A stretch of DNA of 64,000 nt from a virus: positions 1 through 64,000 of IMG/VR virus record IMGVR_UViG_3300025030_000071; one strand, written 5' to 3'. Under the pieces are notes generated by a model, which was not told the DNA's origin, searched no databases, and saw nothing but the letters and a program-made list of their open reading frames with translations. The position numbers and the translations under genes are program-made. Shown piece by piece: positions 2,520 through 20,268 of this stretch (position 1 is the first letter of the stretch; each line of letters begins with the position of its first letter).

Positions 2520-5500
2520 ATGCCAATCAATCCACACTTTGAGGAGCTAGAAGCCGCTAAGTATTATTCTGGGCTAGCCCTTCAACGTCCACAACTACCC
2601 ACCTCTTTAGAAAGTCATCTACAATCAGCATTTAAACATGCTTCAATGTTTGACATTGAAACTGGTGACTTACATTCCTCAACTCCAATATATGAATCTG
2701 GGGTTCAACATGGAGTTGACAATCCCCAATTCTTTCATGCATTTGCAAGACCAACAAATATAGCAGGAACCTCAAGGGGTTATGTTGGAGGGTTTACTGA
2801 ACGTAGTCTCCAGAACCGCTTTGGCATGCCTGCTCAGGACGTTCTAGATATATTTGGAAAGTCTCCTTTAGGACAGAGAGACATTGTTGCTCAGACTCTG
2901 GATCAGCTTTCTGGTAGGGATATCTGGGTCCAGAACTTAAGACATGAGAGAGAATTTATCAATGCTAGGCTAGGCAGCGAAAAGGTCCAGGGTCCTGACG
3001 CTTTCTTAGAATGGGCAAAGAAGAACAATCTACAAACTCATAGTACAGGTCTTTATACTACTGATATAGGGATTAAAAGAGCTACTGTCCTTGCTAACCA
3101 AGGACAGTATTCTAAAACTCCAGTTGAACAGTATCTTAGCAGATGGGAAGGGGTATTTGGAGAATATAAGAGAGCTTTAGGAGGACCACGCCCACAAGGA
3201 ACTACTAGAGTCTTTGAAATGATGGATTTAACAAAGTCTGTCTTTGCGATGGCTCAGAGTAGAGGCTTTATGCCTCAGACTGGTGAACTATTTGCTGGCA
3301 CTGGGATTGAAGCTCTTTCAAGAGGTATGTTTGGTATCGGCGAAAGGCACACAAGCCTAGGAGACGCAGCTTTACAAGGAGAACTAACTAGACACCTTTA
3401 TGCTGCTGGTAACTTGATGTCTGAGAACCAGACATTACCTGAACAGTACCAGAAATTCTTCAAGAATATGGGGGATATTGTTCCCTATGCTAAACAGCGT
3501 GGTTTAGTTAAGAACATTGTTAGTACTTTTAGAGATATTGAGAAGTTTAAGCTAAGTGAGGAATTAGGCAGACCTGATTGGGATTTGTTGAGGGGCGCCA
3601 GAACAAAACCAGATCCAATACCTGGTAAGATGACCTTAAATACTCAGAATCCTGAAACTGGTGCTTATAGTGAAGAAGTCTACCATTACGTCACCAGAAA
3701 AGCAGTCCATCCATCGAACAAAGAATACTATACTACAGACATTAATGAATTAGTTAGTTCTTGGGAAGAGCAAGCCAAAGGTCGTCATGGCGTAATCCCG
3801 GACTACAAAGCCGCTTTAGAAGAAGCACGTAGAGAGTATATTGCTCCTTATCAAGCTCGGAAAACTCAATTAGGAGGTTCCACTTCTGGTGCCCTTCTTG
3901 AGACTGAGTCTTTATTTGAAGAACTCTCCCAAAAAATTGATAAGCAGATTACCTCCAGGATAGGCATCCCGCTAGAAGTAAAACCTTCTGGTTTTAAAAC
4001 AAAACTTTCCTCTTTTGCCAAAGAAAACTGGCCTACAGCTCTTCTGGTTGGTGGGGCCATGCTCGCTGGTGGTTGGCTCTTCTCTGGTAGAGACGATGAA
4101 TACAACACTATTGAAGGCTTAAGGCACCAAGGTTTCGCAGGAGAAACTAGAAGCAAAGTTACTGACTTCGGTTCAGGATTTGATCCATTAAAGCAATTGG
4201 CTAAGCAAGCCAATATGAGTTTTGGGGACATACTGAATCACCCTAATCTAAAAAGATTGTTAGAAGAAGGTAAAATTCTAAAAGAACTTGGGACTGGCAA
4301 GTTTGGCAAAGCAGACTTGATGGAGACTGCGCTAGGGACTGTTCCATTCAAGTATGTTAGAAAGACCCCTCACAGCATAGACTACCTCCTTACTAACGAA
4401 GATACCATTGGTAAAAGCCCAGAATTCATAAATAACTGGGCGATGTTAGCCCAAAGGGATATTAAACAAGAGGCCCTTGCATTAAGAAGACTTAGCGATT
4501 CAGACCTTACACCAACCCCATATCTTTTTGCAAAAAACAGACTCTATATGGAGTTAATGCCAGGGACCAGGGTGGCTGACATCTATGATGCCCCAGGATT
4601 AAAGCAAAAGCTCAAACCAAAACTAGAAGAAATGTTAAACATTTCTAGAAAATACGGCGTTTATAACGAAGATATTCATGGTGGAAATATCTTGTTTGAC
4701 AAATCTAGTGGCAGAATGTCTTGGATTGATTTCGGAGCCTCTTATTTCTTTCCTAGAGGTGTAAGGCAGCCCGAACCAGAACAAGAAATGGTTCGATCTT
4801 TTAATAAAATCCTGGATTACTTTACACCAACCCCAGTCCAATCAAACCAGTTCTCTGGTTTTGACGATGCTTATAATACCATTGAAGGGCTCAGGCATGG
4901 TGGTGTTGCCGGTGCCAATAGAAATAGGATTACTGATTTCGGTTCAGGTTGGGATCCATTAAGAAGTCTTCTTAGAGCGGAAGAAACATTAGCTTCTATC
5001 TTCAGAGACAAAGCAGTGCAACAGGCTTTTATTAATGCTAAAGAACTAAAAATTCTTGGTAAAGGTGAATTCGGCACATCTTATCTCATGGAGACTACAG
5101 TCCGAGGCAAACCCTTCCAGTTTGTACGTAAAAGAGGAAAGATAGGAGAACACGAAGCCGAATTTGCAACACGTGCAGAAGATTCAGTTGCCCCAACTGT
5201 TTATGGGCATTCACGCAGACATATAGATATGGAGTATTTTCCTGGTGAACTGTTAGGAGACGTACCGGCTGACGAACTTGCTGCTATGGGCGTTGGAAAG
5301 ATTGAAGATGCCGTAAGAGCAATACACAAAGTTGGTATTTTTCATAACGATCTGCATTTTAGTAATATGATGCGTGTTAAAACGCCACAGGGCAAACATG
5401 AAATTGGTATTATTGATTTTGGTTATCCTTATGCTGCTGCTTCAGGCACCCCAACTAAGCCATTAAGAGTTCGTCGAACCCCTTCTGAAAATCATCTAAC

Positions 5501-6737
5501 ATTTCAAGATATAACCCTGGGACAAGGCTTTACTGAAGATATGGCTCGGGTTAGAGAAAGTTTTGACTATTATTCTGACCCAGTTTGGCGTGCCGCCGAA
5601 GCTCAAAAACTTCAAGCTTTAGCTCCTACCAAAAAAGTTCCAACCAGGAATATGCAACTCCAAGCTCAGTTGCACATGCAACACGGCCAAGCCCCTGACC
5701 GCATCCAAGCTAACATCCAAGGCAATACTATTCCTGGTTTCCAAGAAGAAGCTCCTATAACTGGCAAAAAAGGTATAATGGCTAGGCTCAGACACTTCTT
5801 CGGTTTCGGTTCTCCTTGGCAAGGCATGTCTGACGAAGATAAATATAACCTCTCTGTCTATGGTGTAGAAGGCTTAAACCGTAAATATGGTCATCCAAGT
5901 TCAGCTAGTATAAAAATTAAAGATTACTTCGTTGAAGATGCTGATACTATCAGATTACTAATGGAAGGCGGCAAAGAAAGAACAATTCGTCTAGCTGGTA
6001 TTGATGCTCCTGAAATTTCACACGATGAAGATTACTCAACTAATAGAGTAAATCAAGATCAGCCTTATGGCTCTCAAGCTGCTACTAGATTAAAAGATAT
6101 TCTAGCTCAACAAGATTCATTAAGAGCCATTATTGATCCAACTGGTGGTTCTACTTATGGTCGTGACGTTGGGGTTTTGGTTGGCGCTGATGGCCAAAAC
6201 ATCAACTTAGAACTAGTCAGACAGGGCGCAGCAGCTTCTTTGCCCTTCGGTGATATCTCAAGTCGATTAGTAGATACTAATGAATTTAGAAAAGCAGAAG
6301 AAGAAGCTTCTGCTCAAGAAGAAGGCATGTGGGGTTTCCAAGGCTGGCAAAATGTCAGAGACCTACAAGAGGGCATGAAGCGTCGAATAACCAACACAAC
6401 CTTTACAGACCCTAAAGACTTATTTAACAACTTTAAAGCTGCTTCAATGGCCGCCAGATTAAACAACCCAGATGATGATCTTTCAGATATGCAAGCTGCT
6501 GGTGGAAGAGACGATTTTAATATTCTAGAAGGTTTAAGACACGGTTGGGCTTCTTCAAATAGAAAACTAAATACTGACTTTGGCTCTGGTTACAAAACCT
6601 CAGATGTAATTGAAACAATGAAACTCTCAACTAAGACCCATCGTATTCTACAAAAGGGCCAAAGAAGAGCAAACAGTTATATGAGAAACGCTGTCAGAAA
6701 CAACAAACAAATGATGATAGGTCATCATATAGGATAA
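2520..6737 (+). CDS. Multi-domain protein: DEDDh-like exonuclease, hydrophobic helix, two atypical protein kinases and a thermonuclease, separated by conserved spacers
   Basis: Exonuclease: FDIETG/QNLRHE/HTSLGD. Kinase 1: LGTGKFG..YVRK..NEDIHGGN..IDFG. Kinase 2: LGKGEFG..FVRK..HNDLHFSN..IDFG. Nuclease: EDADT..RLAGIDAPE..YGR..LVRQGAA..GMWG. Confidence 0.85.
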   Translation: MPINPHFEELEAAKYYSGLALQRPQLPTSLESHLQSAFKHASMFDIETGDLHSSTPIYESGVQHGVDNPQFFHAFARPTNIAGTSRGYVGGFTERSLQNRFGMPAQDVLDIFGKSPLGQRDIVAQTLDQLSGRDIWVQNLRHEREFINARLGSEKVQGPDAFLEWAKKNNLQTHSTGLYTTDIGIKRATVLANQGQYSKTPVEQYLSRWEGVFGEYKRALGGPRPQGTTRVFEMMDLTKSVFAMAQSRGFMPQTGELFAGTGIEALSRGMFGIGERHTSLGDAALQGELTRHLYAAGNLMSENQTLPEQYQKFFKNMGDIVPYAKQRGLVKNIVSTFRDIEKFKLSEELGRPDWDLLRGARTKPDPIPGKMTLNTQNPETGAYSEEVYHYVTRKAVHPSNKEYYTTDINELVSSWEEQAKGRHGVIPDYKAALEEARREYIAPYQARKTQLGGSTSGALLETESLFEELSQKIDKQITSRIGIPLEVKPSGFKTKLSSFAKENWPTALLVGGAMLAGGWLFSGRDDEYNTIEGLRHQGFAGETRSKVTDFGSGFDPLKQLAKQANMSFGDILNHPNLKRLLEEGKILKELGTGKFGKADLMETALGTVPFKYVRKTPHSIDYLLTNEDTIGKSPEFINNWAMLAQRDIKQEALALRRLSDSDLTPTPYLFAKNRLYMELMPGTRVADIYDAPGLKQKLKPKLEEMLNISRKYGVYNEDIHGGNILFDKSSGRMSWIDFGASYFFPRGVRQPEPEQEMVRSFNKILDYFTPTPVQSNQFSGFDDAYNTIEGLRHGGVAGANRNRITDFGSGWDPLRSLLRAEETLASIFRDKAVQQAFINAKELKILGKGEFGTSYLMETTVRGKPFQFVRKRGKIGEHEAEFATRAEDSVAPTVYGHSRRHIDMEYFPGELLGDVPADELAAMGVGKIEDAVRAIHKVGIFHNDLHFSNMMRVKTPQGKHEIGIIDFGYPYAAASGTPTKPLRVRRTPSENHLTFQDITLGQGFTEDMARVRESFDYYSDPVWRAAEAQKLQALAPTKKVPTRNMQLQAQLHMQHGQAPDRIQANIQGNTIPGFQEEAPITGKKGIMARLRHFFGFGSPWQGMSDEDKYNLSVYGVEGLNRKYGHPSSASIKIKDYFVEDADTIRLLMEGGKERTIRLAGIDAPEISHDEDYSTNRVNQDQPYGSQAATRLKDILAQQDSLRAIIDPTGGSTYGRDVGVLVGADGQNINLELVRQGAAASLPFGDISSRLVDTNEFRKAEEEASAQEEGMWGFQGWQNVRDLQEGMKRRITNTTFTDPKDLFNNFKAASMAARLNNPDDDLSDMQAAGGRDDFNILEGLRHGWASSNRKLNTDFGSGYKTSDVIETMKLSTKTHRILQKGQRRANSYMRNAVRNNKQMMIGHHIG
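4080..6593 (+). repeat. In-frame peptide spacer repeats (4080-4190, 4851-4961, degenerate 5724-5826, 6501-6593)
   Basis: FSGRDDEYNTIEGLRHQGFAGETRSKVTDFGSGFDPL / FSGFDDAYNTIEGLRHGGVAGANRNRITDFGSGWDPL / NTIPGF..GIMARLRHFFGFGSPWQG / GGRDDFNILEGLRHGWASSNRKLNTDFGSGY. Confidence 0.9.
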
Positions 6738-6741
6738 TATT

Positions 6742-7140
6742 ATGTCAGTAACAACAAAAATCGGCCAATTTGCCCGATGGGCTTACGAAAAAGGCGTGGC
6801 AGGCTGGGCGTCAGGGCTTAACAATGCCAAAGGTGGATGGGCCAGAGGTGGCCTCAAGGGCTTTATGGGAGCAGCTAAAGGTAGAAGGATGGCGGCACTA
6901 GGACGTGGCGCCTTGGACACTTATAGGCTTGGGAGAACGGGCCTTGGCCGTTGGGACTCTGCGGCGGCAGCAGCATCTACTTATGCTGGTCCTACTGCTC
7001 AAATGGCTGGTAGTTGGTTAACGGCTGGCAATTTAAGAGGCAGAGGCGCTTATCGTTTTGCTTCTTCTGCTGCCAGGATCGGAGCCACTGGAGCCGCTCT
7101 TGATTTCTTAAATCCATTCTCATTAGGTTTTAACGACTAA
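6742..7140 (+). CDS. Gly/Ala/Arg-rich basic protein (candidate virion core/ejected protein)
   Basis: Composition is dominated by G, A, R and W. Closely coupled to neighbouring genes. Confidence 0.6.
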   Translation: MSVTTKIGQFARWAYEKGVAGWASGLNNAKGGWARGGLKGFMGAAKGRRMAALGRGALDTYRLGRTGLGRWDSAAAAASTYAGPTAQMAGSWLTAGNLRGRGAYRFASSAARIGATGAALDFLNPFSLGFND

Positions 7141-7142
7141 AC

Positions 7143-7976
7143 ATGGGACTTAGGAATTTTGGAGCCAAAGATAGGGCTATATTTGGTAAAGTAGCTGGTG
7201 GAGTTGGCTTCTTTGGCGGGTCAGCTATAGGCTTGCTTGGAGCTGCTGGCAAGCTAGGAATGTCTGGCATGGCTGGCTTCAATAAAGACTTAGGTAATAT
7301 CTTTACTGATTATAGAGGCTGGCGCCGGAACACATTAAAAAAATTAGGTCAAAACAGAAGAGGTGCCGATATAATCCAAGCGCGAGAGACCTATGGCCCC
7401 CGCAGATCACCAAAAGCTTATGAACATGCAGACAAATACGGCCGCCAATATAACCGTAAAACTGGTGTATATGGTGACCGTAAGTTCATGGCTAGAACGG
7501 CAGGCGAGCATCTAAACAAAGGTGCTAGAAATATTGGCAGGACTTTAACCTCTAAGGCATTCTGGGGATTAAATATTGGCATTGCTGCTGTAATGTCTGA
7601 AGGTGATCCTTTAGACCCAAATACCGGGATGGTCAAACATGTTGCCAGCTCCGCTGGCGGATGGCTTGGTTGGGAGGCAGGAGGCTCCCTAGGGGCCGCA
7701 GCAGGCCTTCTTGTAGGTGGACCCATAGGCGCAGCCATTGGATACGTTGCAGGTGCCTTCTTGGGCGCTGAGGGAGGGATGGCCTTAGCTGAAGCCCCAT
7801 GGAAGATGTCTGAGCTAGGCCACAAATACGGAAGAAATTCTAAAGTAAGAAGGTCTACTTTCATTGACTCAGAAGGTGCAATGACAATGCGCCAGAGAGG
7901 GATCCAAGCCATAGCAAGATCGCAAATGTCGGCGAAAGGTGCTATGGGCCAAGAGGCACTTATGATGCACGGATAA
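7143..7976 (+). CDS. Basic glycine-zipper protein (candidate membrane-inserting/ejected protein)
   Basis: GGWLGWEAGGSLGAAAGLLVGGPIGAAIGYVAGAFLGAEGG forms a GxxxG run. Confidence 0.65.
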   Translation: MGLRNFGAKDRAIFGKVAGGVGFFGGSAIGLLGAAGKLGMSGMAGFNKDLGNIFTDYRGWRRNTLKKLGQNRRGADIIQARETYGPRRSPKAYEHADKYGRQYNRKTGVYGDRKFMARTAGEHLNKGARNIGRTLTSKAFWGLNIGIAAVMSEGDPLDPNTGMVKHVASSAGGWLGWEAGGSLGAAAGLLVGGPIGAAIGYVAGAFLGAEGGMALAEAPWKMSELGHKYGRNSKVRRSTFIDSEGAMTMRQRGIQAIARSQMSAKGAMGQEALMMHG

Positions 7977-8438: not shown

Positions 8439-8928
8439 ATTCCTATGTACTAGATTAAGTTTTTGGCTAGTGTTTCTATATGTTAAGCTCTTACAAAAAG
8501 CTCGAAAATTAGTTCACTGGCGCCCAAATAACGATATTCATATACCTTCTTATTCTAGCTTAAGAGATTACACCCCAAATACTTTAAAACCCTCAGTAGA
8601 TAAAAACACTCTGAGAGGTGCTAGCTTCATTACCGATCTTTTTGCTGCTACTTTTAATGTATTTAATCCTAACATCTTGCATTTACGTTGGTTAGACAAA
8701 TACAACAACGTTCAAAAGGCATCAGTAGCTATTTATACTTATCTGAATGGAACTGGCCCTAAATTCGGCTGTTTCATGCATGGTATGCATTTTCGTAGCC
8801 AAGCTACAATGTCAAAGTTATTAGGTATTGTTATGCGTTCATATGACGGCTATAAGCTTTTATCTTATGGTTTAAGCAATTCAGATGGAAAATTACTAGA
8901 TGTTGTCATTTGCGGAAAGGATAGCTAA
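8398..8928 (+). CDS. Hypothetical protein (start possibly the downstream MLKAIK ATG)
   Basis: ORF overlaps both neighbours on the coding strand. Confidence 0.5.
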   Translation: MKKVTNMLKAIKTKFLCTRLSFWLVFLYVKLLQKARKLVHWRPNNDIHIPSYSSLRDYTPNTLKPSVDKNTLRGASFITDLFAATFNVFNPNILHLRWLDKYNNVQKASVAIYTYLNGTGPKFGCFMHGMHFRSQATMSKLLGIVMRSYDGYKLLSYGLSNSDGKLLDVVICGKDS

Positions 8929-9292
8929 GGTAAACACCAAAGCTTCTATCAAGTTCCAAAAGAGGAAGAAGAAAACAACCCCTCCGCCCAAAACAACCAA
9001 AAAATCAACCTCTTATGAAGAAGCCAAGAATCTATACAATACTCCAGAATATAAAAACTGGAGAATGTTTATATTAAAGAGAGACAGCTTCTCTTGTCAG
9101 TTATGCGGTCAAGAAGGCGGAGCTTTAGAAGCTCATCATATTCTAAGAAAATTTGACAGACCAGACCTAACTTTAGATACTAAGAATGGCATTACGCTAT
9201 GTAAGTATTGTCATCGGGTGATTGTTACAGGAAAAGAAAAATTCTTTGTATACATATTTACTCGACTACTAGAACTCAGGGAGATGAAATAA
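8900..9292 (+). CDS. HNH endonuclease (possibly terminase-associated)
   Basis: WRMFILKRDSFSCQLCG...LEAHHI...NGITLCKYCH: two CxxC pairs plus the HNH pattern. Confidence 0.88.
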   Translation: MLSFAERIAKVNTKASIKFQKRKKKTTPPPKTTKKSTSYEEAKNLYNTPEYKNWRMFILKRDSFSCQLCGQEGGALEAHHILRKFDRPDLTLDTKNGITLCKYCHRVIVTGKEKFFVYIFTRLLELREMK

Positions 9293-9293
9293 G

Positions 9294-10151
9294 ATGCCAT
9301 ATACATCAGTTCAAAGCAACCAAGGATACAACGTGGAACCTGGAGTAGATTGGGCTAAGATGGGCCTTTATGCTGCTGGGGCAGTTGTTGGTTATGGGGC
9401 TCTAAGAGGCGCTGGTAAAGCCTTAGGTAGAGGCTGGGCTTCTGGGGCTGGTCAAGCCAGACGAGTTGGGGGGAGGGTTGCCGGAGCAGGAAGATATTTG
9501 GGGAGAAAGGCATCTGAAGGTAGGGCTAATTTTATGGCTGGGTTTAGGGGACCTTCTGCGCAAAGTGCCATACGAGGCACCCTTGAAATTGCTGGCCCTG
9601 GAAATAGAGCTGGCATTGGGGCAGGCGCTCGTAGGGCGCGGATTCAGGAATTACGTCCGAGAGTTGAAGCAAGGGCGGCAAGAGCGGCAAGAGCGGGCGA
9701 GGCTGTAAGAACAAATAGGAATAGAATATCTAATTTACGTTCAATGAGAGACATAAAAAATGCTATGGCAGAAACCAATTTCTTTGCAGGGCCAGAGATG
9801 GCACAGCCACGAACAGTAAATAGAGCGGATCCATTAATAGGCAGACTTTCATCTGGTGGGGCTAGGTCAAGACTGGAAAGAGGAGATAGAGTAAGGGGGA
9901 TAGTCCAAAGACTTCAGGGGGCTGCTAAATCAATTGATAGGAATGACCCACTAATAGGTAGATTATCGCTTGGTGGTTCTGCAAGGATGCCCGCTATGGA
10001 CTCTGCTCATGATATAAGTGAATTGGTAGATCTTAATCGTCGCACTATCTCTTCTAGGATACGAAATCTGCCATCTAGACAACAAATTTTAAATCGACAA
10101 GCAAGAAGAAGTCCTAGCAATATGGCTTCAGTTAACAGAAATTGGTTTTAA
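9294..10151 (+). CDS. Arg/Gly-rich basic protein with N-terminal hydrophobic helix and an internal repeat
   Basis: MGLYAAGAVVGYGAL near the N-terminus. RxDPLIGRLSxGG occurs twice (~9819-9860 and ~9936-9977). Confidence 0.6.
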   Translation: MPYTSVQSNQGYNVEPGVDWAKMGLYAAGAVVGYGALRGAGKALGRGWASGAGQARRVGGRVAGAGRYLGRKASEGRANFMAGFRGPSAQSAIRGTLEIAGPGNRAGIGAGARRARIQELRPRVEARAARAARAGEAVRTNRNRISNLRSMRDIKNAMAETNFFAGPEMAQPRTVNRADPLIGRLSSGGARSRLERGDRVRGIVQRLQGAAKSIDRNDPLIGRLSLGGSARMPAMDSAHDISELVDLNRRTISSRIRNLPSRQQILNRQARRSPSNMASVNRNWF

Positions 10152-10157
10152 ATTTTA

Positions 10158-12539
10158 ATGCTAATTCCCTATGATCAACTTCATCCTGGATGCAAGTTGT
10201 GCTTAAAACAAAATGTAGCTAAGCATGACATTATTGATCCAGAAACAAAGAGAGTCCTTTATAAGAAAGGCTCTTTTCCTATCAAATGCGATGGCATACC
10301 CGCCGATCCAGAATCTAATCTAGTTCAGATTACAGACCCAAGTATTGTAAGAGCGATGGGTGGAGAAGGTGCCATCAGAGAAATGGCCCGCATTCAAGAC
10401 CCAATCTTATGGGCTCAAGACAACATCACTATTGTCAATCAAGAAACAGGAGACAGAGGCCCCTGGCTCCCTCAAGGCGCCACAAGAGACAACATAGAAA
10501 GATATCACCTAGATTCTACTTCAGCTTACTACCAAGAGTTAATGGTTAGGTGTACAGCTAGAAGAAGTGTTTATCGTATTGGCAGGCGTTGTATCCCACT
10601 TACTGAACCAATTGTAATGTCAGATGGTTCGATTAAGGCTATTGGCGATATTGAAGTTGGTGATTTAGTTCTTTCTTACAACTTTATAACTAAGAAAATA
10701 GAAATAAAACAAGTACTTGAAGTATTTGAGAATGGTAAACAAAAAATCTTCCAAGTAAATGTTGAAGGCAGGAGAAGAGTAACTTGTACTTCTAACCACC
10801 CAATTTACACTGTTGAACGTGGATGGCTAACAATCGATGATGGTTTAGAAGTTGGCTTTCATGTTCTAACCCTTACTGGGAACAAGAAAGATGTCGAACA
10901 AACCCTAATCACCTCAATAAAAGAAGATGGTGAAGAAGACACTCGTGATATCTCAATTGAAGATAACTACAACTTCTTTGTAGACAAGATTTTAGTCCAT
11001 AACAGTGGCAAGTCACATAGCTTAGCAACAAAAGCTCTTCATAAAATGTGTACTAATGAAAGTTATAAAGTAATTGTTATTGCCCCAGGCCTTTCCCATA
11101 TTGACAATATTTTTGACATCATCAATGAGTACGTTGAAGGCTCTCCCAGTCTTAAAAGTTCAAAGAGACGTTTTGTTAGGACTCCTTACAGGGCTCTTGA
11201 ACTGCAAAATGGTTCAAGGATAAGAGGCTTTGTTTCTGGCGGAGAGACAGTTCGGGGTCAAGGCTCCGACATGATTATCATTGACGAAGCTGCTTACGTA
11301 GGCAGAACCGATCTTGAAGCCATCTTGTTCATCTTAACCGAACATAAAAATACCATTCTTCTTGCATCTTCGACTCCCACAGGCGCCCGCGAACAGTTCT
11401 ACAAATGGGACATGGACGAAACATTCAAGTCCTTCCATTATCCATCCATGTGCCGTCCAATCTGGGACGTTGACATGGAAACAGAAATGAGAAAGGAAAA
11501 CCCTGGTATTAAATACCGCCATGAAGCCCTAGCTGAACATGGTGAAATGGGTCAAGGTGTTTTCCAACACGAATTTATTGATAGAGCTCTAAACGCAGGG
11601 GATTACGAATACAAAAATAGTAGGTATGACCCTTCATGGATATACACGATAGGCGTTGATTGGAACCCAGTTCATGGAACTGAGATTGTTGTTGTTGGCG
11701 CCGATTCCCAACTAAACCCTCCTAAATACACTGTTGTTGACATGGGGCAAGTCTTCCGAGAAGGCCACACCCAAATGCAGGCCATGAGAGAGATCATTGA
11801 CCTTACCAGGAAGTGGAAGCCTGCTGCTATTTATGTGGATAGAGGAGCTGGAAGCGTCCAGGTAGAATTTTTAGAAGAAATAGGTTCGATGAAAGGGCAA
11901 GACGAAGAGCTGAAAAGTCTTGCTAGCATCATAACCCCAATCGACTTTGGTAGCAAGATCACCATCTCTCACCCGCTTACCGGTGAACAGCGAATAGACT
12001 TTGCTAAACCTTTAGTAGTTGAAAATGCAGTTCGAATGTTGGAAGGCGATTTGATCCAACTTTCAAGATATGACTCGATACTTGAACAACAACTTCGTGG
12101 TTTTATCATTGCGAAAATAGGTTCTGGCGGAAGGCCCGTCTATACAACCATCAGTGAGGATGTTGAGGACCATAGGCTAGATGCTTTCATGCTGGCCTTA
12201 TTTGCATTCATGAAGGAATTTTCAAGACTTGGAAAGCCAGTTTTCAATTCAGATGTTCAGATAGTTGAAACCTTACGGAGTCTAGCAACTGACCTCAACA
12301 TTTCCGAAATGCCAAGTCCTTACCAAAAGCATCGGCCTACAAGCCGTACAATAGATAAGCAAAAAGGTCTTGACAAGATGGTAGAATCAGATCGAGAATT
12401 TGGCTTGCTTGCTCCCAGCGAGATTAAGACTGGACAATACAGCCCTTCTTACCGTCCATTCAGCGACCAAAGACAAAAAAATACATCACTTTCGCCAGGC
12501 TCAAACAGAAGCGCGATTAGACGTTCTAACATCAGGTAG
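10158..12539 (+). CDS. terL: Terminase large subunit, intein-containing
   Basis: Walker A GRR|SGKS is restored on intein removal. RGQGSDMIIIDEAA (Walker B), SSTPTG coupling motif, nuclease motifs IGVDW, YVDRG and DHRLDAFML. Confidence 0.93.
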   Translation: MLIPYDQLHPGCKLCLKQNVAKHDIIDPETKRVLYKKGSFPIKCDGIPADPESNLVQITDPSIVRAMGGEGAIREMARIQDPILWAQDNITIVNQETGDRGPWLPQGATRDNIERYHLDSTSAYYQELMVRCTARRSVYRIGRRCIPLTEPIVMSDGSIKAIGDIEVGDLVLSYNFITKKIEIKQVLEVFENGKQKIFQVNVEGRRRVTCTSNHPIYTVERGWLTIDDGLEVGFHVLTLTGNKKDVEQTLITSIKEDGEEDTRDISIEDNYNFFVDKILVHNSGKSHSLATKALHKMCTNESYKVIVIAPGLSHIDNIFDIINEYVEGSPSLKSSKRRFVRTPYRALELQNGSRIRGFVSGGETVRGQGSDMIIIDEAAYVGRTDLEAILFILTEHKNTILLASSTPTGAREQFYKWDMDETFKSFHYPSMCRPIWDVDMETEMRKENPGIKYRHEALAEHGEMGQGVFQHEFIDRALNAGDYEYKNSRYDPSWIYTIGVDWNPVHGTEIVVVGADSQLNPPKYTVVDMGQVFREGHTQMQAMREIIDLTRKWKPAAIYVDRGAGSVQVEFLEEIGSMKGQDEELKSLASIITPIDFGSKITISHPLTGEQRIDFAKPLVVENAVRMLEGDLIQLSRYDSILEQQLRGFIIAKIGSGGRPVYTTISEDVEDHRLDAFMLALFAFMKEFSRLGKPVFNSDVQIVETLRSLATDLNISEMPSPYQKHRPTSRTIDKQKGLDKMVESDREFGLLAPSEIKTGQYSPSYRPFSDQRQKNTSLSPGSNRSAIRRSNIR
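10590..11003 (+). mobile_element. Mini-intein (138 aa, no homing endonuclease) in terminase Walker A
   Basis: Begins CIPLTEPIVMSDG, block B CTSNHPIY, ends YNFFVDKILVHN with Ser at +1. Confidence 0.93.
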
Positions 12540-15278: not shown

Positions 15279-18200
15279 ATGTCTGAATCAACAATCATTG
15301 ATTTCACAACCAGTAAAAGAACTCCTGGTGACTGGATTGCTAGTCTTGCCGATGTAGCTAAACCTTCAGATAATCCTGCTAGCCATATTTCTCTCGTTAG
15401 ACTTAGCTCTCCAGCAGTAAAAAGACCAACCCTAACTTATTTCGAACCTAACGTTTCTTCTAGACGATCAGATACTGCCGACTTCCACGAACCAGAATAT
15501 AATATGATTGATCCTGGCACTATAGAGGATATTGAATCCTACATATATCAGGGTAATCTAAAGAAATTAGCTTTAGCAGTCAAAGAAGGCTGGGCCTTAG
15601 TCGGCAAAAACAAACAAACAACTGAATATATCAAGAAACGTTTCTCCCAACTAGAGATAGCACAAGGCCAGACTATGTTTGGCCTTTTCTCAGAAATCAT
15701 ATCTACTCTTTTAAGATGGCACAACTGTTATATCCTAAAAGTTAGAGACCCAGAAGCTTCTGGTGGCAAAGTTAGAAGTGTTAATGGAAAGATTATTAAA
15801 CCAGTTGCCGGTTATTTCGTCGCTAGCCCAAACACCATTAAAACAAGAATAGGTAAAGATTACAAAGTCTCAGCTTATAAGCATGTAATGCCTGATGGAA
15901 GATTCAAAATTTTCCCAGCTGATGACGTAATTCACTTACATATCTTCAAGAAACCCCACTTCATAACAGCAGCTCCACCTATCACCCCAATGGCAGATGA
16001 CGTTGCTGCTTTACGTCGTATCGAAGAACATGTTGAGAACTTAGTCTACCAACACATATATCCTCTCTACCAATACAAGATTGGAACTAAAGATTATCCA
16101 GACGTTCGCAGAACAGAGAATGGCTTAACTGAAATTGAATCAGTTGAGAACAAATTAAGAAATGCCCCTACTGACTCAATGCTTGTTACCTCATTCAGAC
16201 ATGAGATTACAGGTATTGGTGCAGAAAGTAGAGCCTTAAGAGCAGAACCATTTTTAGAATACTTCAAGAAAAGAGTAATCACTGGAACTTCTTTATCTGA
16301 GATAGACTTCGGCGATGGGAACACTGCGAACAGGGCCTGCTATTCAGAGGACACTCAAACATTAACAGAAAATGGTTGGAAATATTATTGGGAGATAGAG
16401 GAGGAAGAAAAAATAGCAACTTTTAATCCTAAGACTAATGGTTTAGAGTATCATAAACCGGAAGGTGGCATTTATCTATATGATTATGAAGGGCCAATGC
16501 ACCATTTTAAGAACAAAAACGTAGACGTATTGGTAACTCCTGAACATGACATGTGGGCATTAATGAATCAATTTCAAAATCCGAGATGGGAAAAGATACA
16601 AGCAAAATCGCTTACTGGACATAGATTCAGTTTTAGGACTGGTGGAATTAATTGGGAGGGGATAGAACCAGAAAACTTTCTGCTACCATTTGTCCCATGT
16701 AAAAGCAATATAAAATTTGAAAATAGTATAAGATTTGATAGGATTAACATTTATGACTGGCTAGAGTTCTTAGGATATTACGTAAGTGAAGGTCATCTAG
16801 TTAAAGGCGCTTGGAGAGTCGAACTTAGCCAGTCTGAAACTATTAATCCAGCAAAAACTGAAAAAATAAGAGCATGTTTAAGACGTTTGCCTTTCAAATT
16901 CTGTGAAAATCATGACTCAGATGGAATGGTAAGATTTAGAATAAATTGTAAGTCACTATACTTATATTTAGAAGAAGTTTGTGGAGATTATTCATATCTC
17001 AAACATTTCCCAAGTGAGATTCTTAGTTACTCTAAAGAATATTTAAGAGTGGCATTTGAAGCAGCAATGCTGGGAGATGGGACAACGGATATTAGAGAAG
17101 GTAGGACAAACCGAGCATATAGTTCTACATCAGAGATGCTTTTAGACCAAATGCAAGAAATTGCTATAAAATTAGGGTATAAGGCTCATATTATAAGATC
17201 CGGGGTACCAAGGGTAAGTATTTCAGAATCTGAAACTTCTATGGTAAAACAAGATCAAGTAGAAATTACTAATTATAGTGGGAAAGTTTACTGTTACCGT
17301 GTTCCCAATCACCTCTTCATCACCAGAAGGAATGGACGAATAGGCATACATGGCAACACAGCCACAGTTTTATCAAATCTAGCTATTGGTATAGTTAAAT
17401 TTTACCAGCTATGTTTGTCTAATGATTTAAATTTCCATATCATCAGAGAACTTTTATTAGAAAGTACATTTACTTTTGATGTTCTCTCAGAAGAAAATAT
17501 GGTTGAGCTTCAGTTCAAGGAAATTGATCTTGAAGCTCAGGTCAAAAAACAAAACCACTTTGCTCTACTTTACCAAAACAATTTGATAAGTCATACCGAA
17601 GCAAGAATGCTTGCTGGGTTTGATGTTTTAGCTCCTGACCAAGAATCCGACATGTTCCAAGAACGAGTCAAGATCCCAGAAATTGAACAAGCAGCTAAAG
17701 CGCAGGCTCAAAACCGCCAGCAACCAACTAACCAATTCGGTACTGCTTCAGGCCCTTCAGCAAGCAAGTCTTCTTTAGAACCAAGTTTTACATTTAGAGA
17801 TGATCTGGGGAATGACCTTTATAGCGATTTGACCGATGACCTACACAATTTGAACAAGAAGCAAGTAGATCTAAACTTTGTTCGACAACTCTTTCTTTCA
17901 ACCAAAGACCAAATACTCATCAAATTAGCTCCTAAACTAGAACAAGAAGTCTTTCATGGCGCCAGAGGACTAAGAATAGATAACAATTTATTGATTCGTC
18001 TCTCAGCAATTAACAGAGCCATGTTTAGGGATCTTGAACAAGATGTAGAACGGCTAATCAGAGAAACTTTAGTCAAGACAAGTGCCGAACTAGCGATTGG
18101 CAAGAGAGATAACCTTTCAATTGATACTTTGCAGTTTAGAATGCGGTTCATAGAACGTTCTAGAAAACACCAAGCATATATACTTGGAAAAATGGCTGCC

Positions 18201-18377
18201 CTTGACGCAAATGGTATAAATGAAGTGAGTATAGCCTGTGAACCAGATGGAGAACACTATAATATCTGGCATAACACGGTTATTGGAGTTAAGAATCCTG
18301 ATTTAGATCTACTACCTTTTAGTAGAGCAAATTGCCGTTGTGATATAGTGCCAATCCGGAGAGACGCCAATGTCTGA
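15279..18377 (+). CDS. Portal protein with intein and C-terminal MuF-like domain
   Basis: Lies between terL and protease/capsid. Portal-like segments LRWHNCYILKVRD, FPADDVIHL, LISHTEARMLAG. C-terminal ANCRC. Confidence 0.8.
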   Translation: MSESTIIDFTTSKRTPGDWIASLADVAKPSDNPASHISLVRLSSPAVKRPTLTYFEPNVSSRRSDTADFHEPEYNMIDPGTIEDIESYIYQGNLKKLALAVKEGWALVGKNKQTTEYIKKRFSQLEIAQGQTMFGLFSEIISTLLRWHNCYILKVRDPEASGGKVRSVNGKIIKPVAGYFVASPNTIKTRIGKDYKVSAYKHVMPDGRFKIFPADDVIHLHIFKKPHFITAAPPITPMADDVAALRRIEEHVENLVYQHIYPLYQYKIGTKDYPDVRRTENGLTEIESVENKLRNAPTDSMLVTSFRHEITGIGAESRALRAEPFLEYFKKRVITGTSLSEIDFGDGNTANRACYSEDTQTLTENGWKYYWEIEEEEKIATFNPKTNGLEYHKPEGGIYLYDYEGPMHHFKNKNVDVLVTPEHDMWALMNQFQNPRWEKIQAKSLTGHRFSFRTGGINWEGIEPENFLLPFVPCKSNIKFENSIRFDRINIYDWLEFLGYYVSEGHLVKGAWRVELSQSETINPAKTEKIRACLRRLPFKFCENHDSDGMVRFRINCKSLYLYLEEVCGDYSYLKHFPSEILSYSKEYLRVAFEAAMLGDGTTDIREGRTNRAYSSTSEMLLDQMQEIAIKLGYKAHIIRSGVPRVSISESETSMVKQDQVEITNYSGKVYCYRVPNHLFITRRNGRIGIHGNTATVLSNLAIGIVKFYQLCLSNDLNFHIIRELLLESTFTFDVLSEENMVELQFKEIDLEAQVKKQNHFALLYQNNLISHTEARMLAGFDVLAPDQESDMFQERVKIPEIEQAAKAQAQNRQQPTNQFGTASGPSASKSSLEPSFTFRDDLGNDLYSDLTDDLHNLNKKQVDLNFVRQLFLSTKDQILIKLAPKLEQEVFHGARGLRIDNNLLIRLSAINRAMFRDLEQDVERLIRETLVKTSAELAIGKRDNLSIDTLQFRMRFIERSRKHQAYILGKMAALDANGINEVSIACEPDGEHYNIWHNTVIGVKNPDLDLLPFSRANCRCDIVPIRRDANV
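16338..17357 (+). mobile_element. Intein (340 aa) with LAGLIDADG homing endonuclease
   Basis: Begins CYSEDTQTLTENGWK, block B VTPEHDM, endonuclease blocks LEFLGYYVSEG and EAAMLGDG. Ends RRNGRIGIHGN with Thr at +1. Confidence 0.92.
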
Positions 18378-20268
18378 AACATCAGCTTGGAAGAGACCAA
18401 TGGAGTTTAATGATTTCGCAACAACAATTGCGAAACCTATAAGTTTTGTTGACTCTTCGGGTTCAAAGATTTCTTTCAAAGACTCTGCAAAGGATGGCAA
18501 ACCTCGGCTAAGAGCAAAAGTCAAGATGACCTTTGCAGGTCGTGAAACCCTCAACCATTCCATCTATCTCCCTGATCAGATGTATACCGGCGCCAACACA
18601 TTCTTAAAACCTTTTAATAAGCCAGTACTTAGACATCATGAAACAGAGAAAGACGCCATTGGCCGAGTGATCGATATTCGATATATTGATACCTTCAACG
18701 AAGCAATGGGTTTTAGTGACAGGCTTATTTCTGTAGCTTCTGTTTTCAAAGATAAAAACTCGAATTTAAGACGCAGACTAGATACCGTAGCTGCTTTCTT
18801 AGATGCATCCGAAAATCCTTCCTATATGGGTGCTGGTCACCTCTTAGGCATTTGGGATATTACTGATGCAGAAGCAATTGAGAAAATACTTGATGGTAGA
18901 TACTCAACTGTTTCAACTGATTTCAAACCCAAGGGAGCTTATTGCTCTACTTGTGTTTTGGAAGGTGAACTAACTGATTGGCGTACTGACGATTGTGACC
19001 ATTCTCGTGGTCAGATGGTTGATGGCCGAGTAGCTGTTGCTATTCCTTATGGCTTTATGTACAAAGAAGCTTCATTTGTGAATGTGCCAGCAGCCCCGGC
19101 CTTTGTTTTAGAAACTGGAGAAGATTTATCTTTCTCAGATGCAGTTTCAAAAACGAATTACTCTATACCACATGAAATAATCTCAGACGTTATTTTAGAT
19201 ACAGGAAAGGCCTGCTTTAACGCAAAGGGCTCTGCCGTATCGAAATTACCAGAAAATTTCTCTGATTATCTGCAAGTTATAAATCCCACACAAACAAGTA
19301 AGAGTAAAGTAATTGGAGATAATGAACAAGGCGGAGCTGTAGGCCCGCAAGGAAGCACCATGTTTGAACTTTCAGAATTAACAAAGGATACTGAGAGCAA
19401 CTACGCCGAGATCATCAAGCATCTAGGCCAGGACGCAGCTCAGTTAACTGGTGATCTTCTAAAAGATCTAGAAGATTCTGCCTTTATTGGTCCTAACCGA
19501 ACCTTCCCAGTAAAGGACCTTTGTCATGCTAATGCGATCAAAGCCCTTTTAGGTGAAGTCAAGGATTCAGAAAGCAAGTCTGCTCTTCTAGAAATCCTTG
19601 AATCCAAGATGTCAGCTTTTGAGGTTTCTCCAGAAACAGATGCAGCCGCGGCAGAAGAACCCGTTGTTGCTGCTACCGAACAGGATGCAGAGACTTTTGC
19701 TTCAGCAGAACCAAAAGACCTTGATACTCAACTTACCGAATTAGGTCTTGCAAAGATCACAACCGATGCTCTTGTCAAACTAAACGCTGAAGTAGACGAT
19801 CTAAAGACCTCTAAGGCCATTTGGCAGCAACGTATCCAGAGTCTCGAAACTGAAGTTCGGCGCTATGCTGATTCCCAGACTGAACTCGTTAAGTCCTATA
19901 AAGATTTACTAGCTTCTCAGCTACTAGACAATCAGATTGCTCGTGGTATGAGGATTAAAGATAAAGAAGAGACCCTAAAGAAATACAAATCTAAGACTTT
20001 AGAATCTCTAAAAGACAGTCTCGCTGATCTTTCCGATTTTGAAGAGGATGGGTTAGCAAGAGAAGCATCAGGTGAGCAGGTAACGGTTGGCGATTTCGCT
20101 GACTCAGCAAGCTCTGCTGATCAGAAAAAACTCAATGAACAGTATCACGATATCCTTTCGACATATTGGGAAAAATTCTATAGTGGTCCTCGTGGTGCCG
20201 CCCATGCTGAGAATTATTTGAATGAACAAAAGCGTCAGGGACTGATTCCAGTTAACCTTGTCCCTTAA
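18370..20268 (+). CDS. Prohead protease/scaffold protein
   Basis: KPVLRHH..DAIGRV, KILDGRYSTVS, YKEASFVNVPA are protease-like. Acidic coiled-coil C-terminal half. Lies between portal and capsid. Confidence 0.75.
   Translation: MSETSAWKRPMEFNDFATTIAKPISFVDSSGSKISFKDSAKDGKPRLRAKVKMTFAGRETLNHSIYLPDQMYTGANTFLKPFNKPVLRHHETEKDAIGRVIDIRYIDTFNEAMGFSDRLISVASVFKDKNSNLRRRLDTVAAFLDASENPSYMGAGHLLGIWDITDAEAIEKILDGRYSTVSTDFKPKGAYCSTCVLEGELTDWRTDDCDHSRGQMVDGRVAVAIPYGFMYKEASFVNVPAAPAFVLETGEDLSFSDAVSKTNYSIPHEIISDVILDTGKACFNAKGSAVSKLPENFSDYLQVINPTQTSKSKVIGDNEQGGAVGPQGSTMFELSELTKDTESNYAEIIKHLGQDAAQLTGDLLKDLEDSAFIGPNRTFPVKDLCHANAIKALLGEVKDSESKSALLEILESKMSAFEVSPETDAAAAEEPVVAATEQDAETFASAEPKDLDTQLTELGLAKITTDALVKLNAEVDDLKTSKAIWQQRIQSLETEVRRYADSQTELVKSYKDLLASQLLDNQIARGMRIKDKEETLKKYKSKTLESLKDSLADLSDFEEDGLAREASGEQVTVGDFADSASSADQKKLNEQYHDILSTYWEKFYSGPRGAAHAENYLNEQKRQGLIPVNLVP

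Follow-up and report, generated by a model that had tools for sequence, protein, structure and literature searches.

A single gene of an uncultured groundwater jumbo-type phage encodes a 1405-aa chain of enzyme modules (P0001) in which each module is headed by a conserved joint of ~37–45 aa, and comparison of close relatives shows insertion, deletion and replacement of entire modules at these joints. The gene lies in the 64-kb window, which is the whole stretch of DNA analysed here, from a record of 86.7 kb in full. The family of P0001 comprises at least 473 protein clusters, all from uncultured phages or metagenomes. We regard it as about an even call that P0001 is a polyvalent enzyme chain that is packaged in the capsid and reaches the host along with the DNA, with a joint that is recognized by a conserved phage factor that processes and/or holds the chain.

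Architecture of the enzyme chain

A first-pass annotation had described the ORF and its domain architecture, and we confirmed both, including the exact coordinates of the hydrophobic helix. The chain comprises, in order:

2520–6737, + strand: modular multi-enzyme chain P0001, whole ORF, one uninterrupted frame of 1405 aa
2649–3365, + strand: DEDDh-like 3'-5' exonuclease core (hhalign to sister N-terminal family; motif positions ExoI FDIETG 2649–2666, ExoII NLRHEREF 2934–2957, ExoIII HTSLGD 3348–3365)
4029–4082, + strand: Gly/Ala-rich hydrophobic (glycine-zipper-like) helix directly before joint 1 (sequence)
4083–4193, + strand: joint 1 core (HMM envelope 4074–4214)
4215–4844, + strand: kinase-like module 1, ABC1/RIO type (Pfam; motifs VRK Lys 4353–4370, catalytic D-x4-N 4668–4688, DFG 4722–4742)
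4854–4964, + strand: joint 2 core (HMM envelope 4845–4985)
4986–5711, + strand: kinase-like module 2 (Pfam; motifs VRK 5121–5138, HNDLHFSN 5343–5366, DFG 5409–5429; confident AlphaFold2 domain)
~5712–5846, + strand: degenerate joint 3, of the variant class preceding SNase modules (N-x-I-x-G ... R ... FGSPWQG)
5934–6332, + strand: staphylococcal-type nuclease (Pfam, Foldseek, PDB profile search, motifs)
6501–6611, + strand: joint 4 core (HMM envelope 6486–6626)
6621–6734, + strand: basic 38-aa C-terminal tail ending HHIG (homolog comparison, AlphaFold2)

The first-pass assignment of the N-terminal region to the DEDDh exonucleases held in part. ExoI and ExoIII were present and the exonuclease-like family aligned (hhalign 97.8%, E = 8e-13) with a sister N-terminal family, some of whose members match PF03104, but the P0001 copy itself had no Pfam hit and Glu replaces Asp in its ExoII. 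Both kinase-like modules belong to the protein-kinase-like superfamily (ABC1/RIO/Bud32-type minimal kinases), with the beta-3 Lys, D-x4-N and DFG all present in each. Pfam placed an ABC1/RIO-type kinase at aa 638–749 (33.8 bits vs a cut-off of 22.9) and a Pkinase at aa 901–974 (30.9 bits, just below the 31.7 cut-off). The two are strongly diverged, as had been claimed, with 38% identity across 128 aligned residues and, by BLAST, 27% across 185. The nuclease matched SNase (PF00565) at aa 1155–1271 (E = 2.6e-16, 60.4 bits vs a cut-off of 21), its fold was confirmed by Foldseek (TM ~0.8 to staphylococcal nuclease) and a PDB profile search (E = 6e-13), and equivalents of the catalytic and Ca-ligand residues were present in EDADT, RLAGIDAPE, and YGRDVG.

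Of 196 homologs, 78% had a comparable hydrophobic helix no more than 30 aa ahead of their first joint, compared with 7% at random positions, and one homolog (L009) had a weak DUF883_C glycine-zipper match at the equivalent place. The tail type was kept in 44/202 homologs, and AlphaFold2 predicted a helix within it (model residues 617–639, pLDDT 66–86).

The joint and its variable cargo

The joint has the consensus FSGkDDaYNtIEGLrHgG-A-x3-R-x3-TDFGSG[WY]. Its three clear copies had domain E-values of 1e-27 to 1e-30, far beyond chance, while degenerate joint 3 was detected only by an iterated profile at 14.8–19 bits. Neither the six-frame translation of the window nor the 86.7-kb record contained a further copy of the motif, and since no other protein of the record carries it, the joint is not a general head-protein tag. 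It had no Pfam or PDB match, in keeping with the earlier remark that this spacer corresponds to no named domain.

The joint is the best-conserved part of the protein: identity across homologs was 58–61% for joints, 47% for the SNase, and 26% for the kinase. Conservation peaked at FGS (F 99%, G 95%, S 99%), and Arg was conserved at 92%, then K/R. Joints 1 and 2 were identical at 26/37 residues and 78/111 nucleotides (~70%), and 10 of the 26 shared residues were encoded by different codons. The first-pass count of 27 shared residues thus becomes 26 in the frame used here, while the high identity and the 10 synonymous codons stand, and the synonymous differences support its proposal of selection on the peptide. 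In a 651-aa AlphaFold2 model every joint had pLDDT <50 against ~90 for the enzymes, with kinase and nuclease modelled confidently, and the joint modelled alone (63-row alignment) gave pLDDT 62, pTM 0.27 and no compact fold. With its joints modelled as disordered beside confident enzyme domains, the chain is predicted to carry a conserved linear motif outside the kinase fold, so the proposal of a cassette system survived a check on whether the spacer was part of that fold.

A profile made solely from the three clear joints and searched against 1.84 billion protein clusters matched 473 clusters at E ≤ 1e-3 and 310 at E ≤ 1e-10, with 1–7 joint copies per protein. The same profile had zero matches in 50,697 GenBank phage records and 185,579 prokaryote genomes. 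Across 203 homologs, the 708 inter-joint units fell into 166 clusters, and most of the unit clusters examined lacked a Pfam family; nine of ten further homologs scanned contained zero or one Pfam family (E ≤ 0.01). Following a conserved N-terminal exonuclease-like "carrier" and the glycine-zipper helix, modules were kinase-like, SNase, DEDD exonuclease, or one of many kinds without a known family.

Similarity breakpoints fell inside a joint in 29/44 cases vs 10% expected, though BLAST-mapped ends tend to drift into the joints owing to their conservation, and the 16 mosaic pairs are not all independent. Close relatives gave direct cases of exchange: P0007 and P0010 were 99% and 97% identical on the two sides of one replaced module, and the pairs P0071/P0072 and P0020/P0026 each differed by one whole module. 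The cassette idea, for which the first-pass annotation had suggested an HMM-based tabulation and which invariant domain content would have contradicted, was borne out by the variable content and by the swaps at the spacer in near-identical relatives.

Genomic setting and a candidate head protease

Across 43 loci there was one joint-bearing ORF per locus, and the modules of a chain were always kept in one polypeptide. The neighbouring features in the window are:

1687–2514, + strand: probable small terminase subunit (TerS), 275 aa, four invariant Cys (alignment; ESM Atlas)
6742–7976, + strand: two basic Gly-rich proteins immediately after the chain gene (132 and 277 aa), the second with a glycine-zipper segment
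10158–12539, + strand: large terminase TerL with mini-intein, downstream of the chain gene
18370–20268, + strand: candidate prohead protease fused to an acidic coiled-coil scaffold-like part (XkdF/S78_2-like N-terminal domain, Zn-ribbon insert)

The TerS-like gene was directly upstream, adjacent or overlapping, in 35/43 loci, and TerL lay 1.2–5.5 kb downstream in 40/43, so the late/packaging-operon setting noted in the window is conserved in 35–40 of the 43. The portal gene was downstream in 22 of these loci and a homolog of the 277-aa protein in 16. For the 275-aa upstream protein, ESM Atlas gave leads to YonG and P27 TerS only.

The protein at 18370–20268, earlier proposed as a protease, is plausibly a fusion of prohead protease and scaffold. 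Four of 18 members of its family matched PF14550 (best E = 7e-4; the window copy had no match), H90 and S182 were invariant, and SFVNxPA was conserved. ESM Atlas gave leads only, and the PDB contained no sequence match.

Proposed capsid delivery, its precedents and its rivals

The closest known kind of protein is the polyvalent protein of phages and conjugative elements (Iyer, Burroughs, Anand, de Souza, Aravind 2017, PMC5512222). Like P0001, polyvalent proteins combine several unrelated enzymatic domains in one phage polypeptide with an architecture that varies among relatives, contain small kinase domains along with nucleases, are encoded beside head/packaging genes, and have the same proposed role of delivery with DNA for host takeover or anti-defence. 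P0001 has at least two distinct catalytic/effector domains (exonuclease-like, two kinase-like, SNase), and its relatives are highly variable in architecture (166 unit clusters in 203 proteins, with swaps). Unlike polyvalent proteins, P0001 has a single ~40-aa joint recurring before every module, its family occurs in no cultured phage, and the hallmark domains were not detected: Pfam gave no MuF, zincin-like MPTase, LPD or ART domain in P0001 (E ≤ 1) and no polyvalent hallmark domain in ten other family members (E ≤ 0.01). Without a MuF domain, the MuF toxins cited in the first-pass annotation are a conceptual precedent only. Iyer et al. proposed processing by embedded peptidases, and the word "linker" is absent from their paper (PMC5512222); we found no description of a serial conserved joint in the literature searched.

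Head-carried enzymes ejected with the DNA provide a second likeness to the proposed role. T4 IPI–III and Alt have a capsid-targeting sequence (CTS) cut by the prohead protease gp21, and phiKZ/SPN3US ejection proteins have long propeptides (PMC5694885). A short conserved loading peptide removed by the head protease can persist while its cargo diverges. These tags are N-terminal, one per separate protein, 10–20 aa or propeptides >100 aa in length, with a three-residue (L/I)-x-E or (S/A/G)-x-E site at their end, whereas the joint lies within the chain, recurs in series, spans 37 aa and varies least at FGSG, and the candidate protease here resembles XkdF/S78_2 and not S77/S80. Within IE|G, the Glu was 77% conserved and was replaced throughout the joint class preceding SNase modules, so IE|G is no universal cut. 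We rejected a classification as T4-type CTS cargo on this Glu, the internal 37-aa joint and the XkdF-like protease. The earlier interpretation stands in its architecture, spacer without a name, peptide selection, cassettes and operon, and is weakened in its IE|G and LE|G cut sites.

Junctions bordering exchangeable or co-translated enzymes are found elsewhere. The pre-toxin junctions VENN of CdiA and PxxxxDPxGL of Rhs are, like the joint, conserved peptides that border a swappable enzymatic cassette at recombination breakpoints, and the Rhs motif is also a processing site. Polymorphic toxins have one junction before one C-terminal toxin and use bacterial secretion systems, whereas the P0001 family has up to seven serial junctions in a phage head-operon protein with no sequence similarity to them. 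Picornavirus- and retrovirus-type polyproteins also translate several enzymes as one chain with repeated junction sequences, but their junctions are short protease sites and their module order is fixed, in contrast to the long joints and strain-variable modules here.

Because the gene is fixed between the probable TerS and TerL genes of the head/packaging operon, a setting like that of polyvalent and T4/phiKZ internal proteins, loading and delivery seem the most likely fate of the chain. It would be loaded into the capsid and enter the host with the DNA, where host nucleic acids and proteins would be the targets of its nucleases and kinases in takeover or anti-defence. The joint would most likely be the protein-level recognition site of a conserved phage factor, for which the XkdF-like protease-scaffold protein is the prime candidate, and this factor would process the chain, cutting it into separate enzymes and removing the C-terminal basic tail, and/or hold it during head assembly. 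The last joint has nothing but a conserved basic tail behind it, which is easier to reconcile with a removable signal than with a plain linker. Against processing, known prohead-protease sites are far shorter than the conserved 37-aa motif; the joint is also absent from cultured relatives, and the conserved hydrophobic helix could equally belong to a membrane-anchored intracellular protein.

A chain that is packaged and never cut, with joints as docking or tethering motifs (nascent basic helix, aromatic ends) and enzymes as beads on a string, is fairly unlikely. The repeated partner inside the head would be the scaffold, the capsid inner face, the portal or the DNA itself. A long, disordered and highly conserved motif is typical of binding motifs that fold on a partner, and the basic core with its conserved Arg, the several copies per chain and the retention of modules in a single polypeptide all agree with tethering. 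Tethering does not easily explain a terminal joint with only a short tail after it, though, and unrelated enzymes, presumably with different targets, would stay linked. We think it quite unlikely that the protein stays out of the virion, anchored by its glycine-zipper helix in a membrane of the infected cell with joints as linkers and binding sites for a conserved host or phage factor. The frequency of the helix before the first joint and the basic Gly-zipper proteins encoded by neighbouring genes favour this, and gene position is on its own no proof of packaging, but the fixed TerS-like/TerL placement resembles that of packaged polyvalent proteins, and a single helix would split exonuclease and cargo across the membrane, and kinases or nucleases facing outward would be hard to rationalize.

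SEA domains and pyruvoyl enzymes are known to cleave themselves at Gly|Ser, and the near-invariant F-G-S, conserved above any candidate protease P1 residue, together with a constant polar set of Asn, His, Arg, Thr, and Asp, could likewise support self-processing, e.g. by an N-to-O acyl shift at Gly|Ser. We consider this improbable, as known self-cleaving sites lie in folded, bond-straining domains while the joint is modelled as disordered, and the joint had no sequence match to known autoprocessing families in Pfam or PDB. A joint kept solely as a DNA-level recombination substrate for module shuffling, with no peptide function, would account for module exchange at the joints, but it is already disfavoured and highly improbable given within-gene copies of only 70% DNA identity, the different codons at shared residues, and amino-acid conservation above that of the catalytic domains.

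Returning to the capsid-delivered chain, it is possible, if doubtful, that the joint is a new ~40-aa disordered processing-and-loading signal, recognized by a head factor or self-cutting at FGS, of a serial plug-in effector-cassette system. Such a system would extend over a large clade of uncultured jumbo-type phages, in which a joint in front of any enzyme would suffice for its packaging, release, and injection. If true, these phages use polyprotein logic with hot-swappable cassettes, for which the bacterial parallel is polymorphic toxins with one cassette per protein. As a loading or cutting signal, the joint would be a portable address label with which any chosen enzyme could be brought into phage heads, and it would also serve as a handle in searches for injected effectors. 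More than 100 module families without known function lie behind joints and are candidates for host-takeover and anti-defence activities. With the joint absent from cultured phages and cellular genomes, only metagenomes currently reveal this biology, and the joint is useful there as a marker even without a mechanism.

The joint and its family

The window belongs to a large phage and is strand-uniform throughout. It comes from an IMG/VR contig, 86,748 bp in length, with a completeness estimate of 43%, and a sequencing-run search located the DNA of this record in groundwater metagenomes of a single study (four groundwater DNA runs). Two of these runs may be its source, and no RNA run was listed. 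The ORF at 2520-6737 (+) runs without interruption and encodes a 1405-aa enzyme chain that comprises an exonuclease-like unit, a helix, two kinase-like modules, a staphylococcal-type nuclease (SNase) and a basic tail. The first-pass annotation had described a conserved spacer repeated between these modules, and a hydrophobic helix at 4029-4082, all of which was borne out almost exactly. This spacer, here termed the joint, is a peptide of ~37-45 aa that heads each module, with four copies in the chain.

Copies of the joint in the chain
aa 519-565: clear copy
aa 776-822: clear copy
aa 1065-1109: degenerate copy (joint 3)
aa 1323-1369: clear copy

Joints 1 and 2 are identical at 26 of 37 residues, with different codons at 10 identical residues and a DNA identity of 78/111. 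No further copies of the motif were found outside the chain, in the window or in the whole record. The consensus of 344 copies is FSGkDDaYNtIEGLrHgG-x-A-x3-R-x3-TDFGSG[WY]xG, and a variant class, GRPxSNxxGNxIxG...R..NT.GQFGSPWQGL, heads SNase modules and includes the degenerate joint 3. The joint has no Pfam family, and PDB sequence/profile searches with it returned nothing significant.

Conservation of joint residues
F: 99%
S: 99%
G (of FGS): 95%
Arg: 92%
Asn: 89%
Glu of IEG: 77%

The C-terminal 876 aa of the chain recovered 148 proteins, all large at 778-2418 aa and encoded on contigs as long as ~200 kb, and a profile of three window joints matched 120 of the 120 proteins listed. As an unbiased test of family size, a joint-only profile was searched against 1.84 billion representative proteins, yielding 473 at E<=1e-3 and 310 at E<=1e-10. 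The 203 proteins fetched carry 1 to 7 joints each; short proteins apparently starting with a joint are probable truncated gene calls and were left out of the evidence. Searches of 50,697 GenBank phage records with the ORF DNA, and at the protein level with the C-terminal 895 aa and the joint, found no real match, the sole one being a chance match to an ssRNA phage (E=4). A scan for the joint pattern across 185,579 prokaryote genomes gave no match, and joint motif strings gave only chance matches in a full-text literature search.

In an AlphaFold2 model of chain aa 755-1405 built with 40 homologs, kinase 2 and the nuclease had pLDDT ~90, and all joints had pLDDT <50, without secondary structure or contact with a domain. 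An isolated joint modelled from 63 aligned copies reached pLDDT 62 and pTM 0.27, its sole structure being a short helix across the A-x3-R part. As modelled, the joint does not fold as a domain of its own and does not belong to a kinase, and the aa 755-1405 model led us to reject it as a component of the kinase fold. Joints are nevertheless the best-conserved part of the chain (58-61% identity vs 47% for the SNase and 26% for the kinase), and because this conservation is combined with modelled disorder, we infer that the joint is a linear motif working through recognition.

Other parts of the chain also recur. A hydrophobic Gly/Ala helix lies ahead of joint 1 in 78% of homologs vs 7% at random positions, and the basic 38-aa tail (...GQxxAN..R..M....HHxG), a helix in the AlphaFold2 model, is found in 44/202 proteins. 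Another subfamily (homologs P0069, P0106, P0128, P0138 and P0160) has a different conserved tail after the last joint, 61 aa long (...AQxxIW...GGKGH...VKQLSRFGGG).

Enzyme modules and their exchange

Pfam placed an SNase domain at aa 1155-1271 (E 2.6e-16), an identity backed by fold comparison and a PDB profile search, with the catalytic and Ca-binding equivalents kept. Two further regions matched kinase-like families, aa 638-749 as ABC1/RIO and aa 901-974 as Pkinase/APH. These two modules are 27-38% identical to each other, and each has retained a beta-3 Lys, a D-x4-N catalytic loop and DFG. The N-terminal 518 aa had no Pfam match, and PDB sequence/profile searches gave nothing significant for this domain. 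Its family aligned with a sister N-terminal family (97.8% probability, E 8e-13), some members of which have precomputed DNA_pol_B_exo1 matches, and the exonuclease motifs line up as FDIETG, NLxxFE (Glu replacing Asp) and HxxxxD. Because of this alignment and the three motifs in register, the earlier label of "DEDDh-like exonuclease" is reasonable as an assignment; the activity is predicted only and uncertain.

Cutting the 203 proteins at their joints produced 708 units, which formed 166 clusters at 60% mutual coverage. The two N-terminal carrier types, conserved exonuclease-like units, are related to each other. Scanned with Pfam at E<=0.01, 9/10 further homologs had zero or one family, and the few matches were to SNase and ABC1, with weak ones to DnaJ and a glycine zipper, and a single intein. 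A weak DnaJ J-domain match (E 9e-4, under the cut-off) lies at aa 475-513 of P0122 (L006:3417-7784), in one cargo module; an intein with LAGLIDADG lies inside the enzyme chain of a related phage (L036:7688-14920, aa 1306-1738, Pfam E ~1e-5).

Units obtained by cutting at joints
Kinase-like: 111 (103 proteins)
SNase: 88
N-terminal carrier type A: 76
N-terminal carrier type B, the window's among them: 55
Small or singleton: >100 clusters

Among relatives at least 75% identical, 29/44 similarity breakpoints fell inside a joint vs 10% expected, in a sample of few and partly interrelated pairs and with BLAST alignments tending to extend into conserved joints. Homologs P0007 and P0010 are 99.3% identical as far as joint 1 and 97% from joint 2 on, with the module in between replaced (196 aa vs 308 aa). 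One additional module between two joints is the difference between P0071 and P0072; P0026 lacks a module present in P0020 and has a chimeric joint. Chimeric metagenome assembly is a possible source of such swaps; collapse of joint copies in assembly is unlikely because copies within a gene are too divergent in DNA.

Polyvalent proteins (Iyer et al. 2017, PMC5512222) are the nearest described kind. The chain has a repeated inter-domain joint, a concept absent from that study, and the hallmark domains of polyvalent proteins were absent from the family members scanned. T4 capsid-targeting sequences, phiKZ/SPN3US propeptides (PMC5694885) and polymorphic-toxin junction motifs resemble the proposed working of the joint but differ from it in position, length, number and sequence.

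The packaging operon

Each of 43 related viral loci has exactly one joint-bearing ORF. A homolog of the 275-aa TerS-like protein (1687-2514) is directly upstream of or overlaps the chain gene at 35/43 loci, TerL lies 1.2-5.5 kb downstream at 40/43, and a portal gene is downstream at 22/43. The 275-aa protein resembles YonG and P27 small terminases at lead level only, and its four invariant Cys (C85, C91, C97 and C122) suggest a metal or Fe-S site. It was rejected as a dedicated protease because its invariant residues (four Cys, Gly, Pro, Glu and two Arg) include no His or Ser. An acidic LSPxDIIDAEF tail closes many of its homologs but is missing from the window copy.

The N-terminal domain of ORF 18370-20268 has an invariant His, an invariant Ser and SFVNxPA, and between the conserved Ser and the SFVNxPA strand it carries a Zn-ribbon insert (Cys-x2-Cys ... 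Cys-x-His; C192, C195, C209 and H211). Peptidase_S78_2/XkdF was matched by 4/18 relatives, ESM Atlas leads also pointed toward it, and an acidic coiled coil makes up the C-terminal half. Judged from sequence, this ORF probably encodes a fusion of a prohead protease with a scaffold. PDB sequence/profile searches returned nothing significant for the protease family or the TerS-like family. The window capsid protein shares ~29% identity with its counterparts in Acinetobacter phage ME3 and Bacillus phage 0305phi8-36.

TerL (10158-12539) contains a mini-intein at ~nt 10611-11003 (Intein_splicing aa 152-282, E 1.8e-10; PT-HINT), and the portal protein (15279-18377, 1032 aa) apparently carries an intein, at ~aa 350-690, that includes a LAGLIDADG homing endonuclease; PHROG matches to thymidylate synthase and RNR families that bear inteins agree with this. 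An HNH endonuclease (8900-9292, E 3e-7) is encoded just upstream of TerL, a pairing that recalls HNH-assisted terminases, and 13 loci keep it on the downstream side of the chain gene. Three basic Gly-rich proteins between the chain gene and TerL (6742-7976, 9294-10151) have glycine-zipper segments resembling the chain's helix and could be co-packaged or membrane-active partners.

Possible role of the chain

The chain is modular, with conserved, disordered, recombination-prone joints, and is fixed in the packaging operon. A purely DNA-recombination role for the joint is very improbable, being disfavoured by the synonymous codon differences between copies, on which we also rejected a signal acting only at the RNA or DNA level. 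Self-cleavage of the joint at FGS is improbable, and a membrane-anchored, non-virion role for the chain is unlikely. Docking at the joints without cleavage is a rather doubtful reading that we would still place ahead of these.

We favour, at roughly even chances for the whole package, delivery of head cargo with the joint as a site of cutting or holding. Within that package, cleavage itself is a tentative component, to which we would give a chance of roughly one third. No convincing IE|G-like site common with the joint was found in the capsid, scaffold, portal-adjacent or Gly-rich proteins, and a predicted complex of the joint with the candidate protease domain (residues 20-275) scored 0.02 against a mark of 0.32, which counts neither way. 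The chain would be carried in the head and delivered together with the DNA; a factor of the phage, with the head protease as the likeliest candidate, would cut or hold it at the joints, and the last joint would allow removal of the basic tail.
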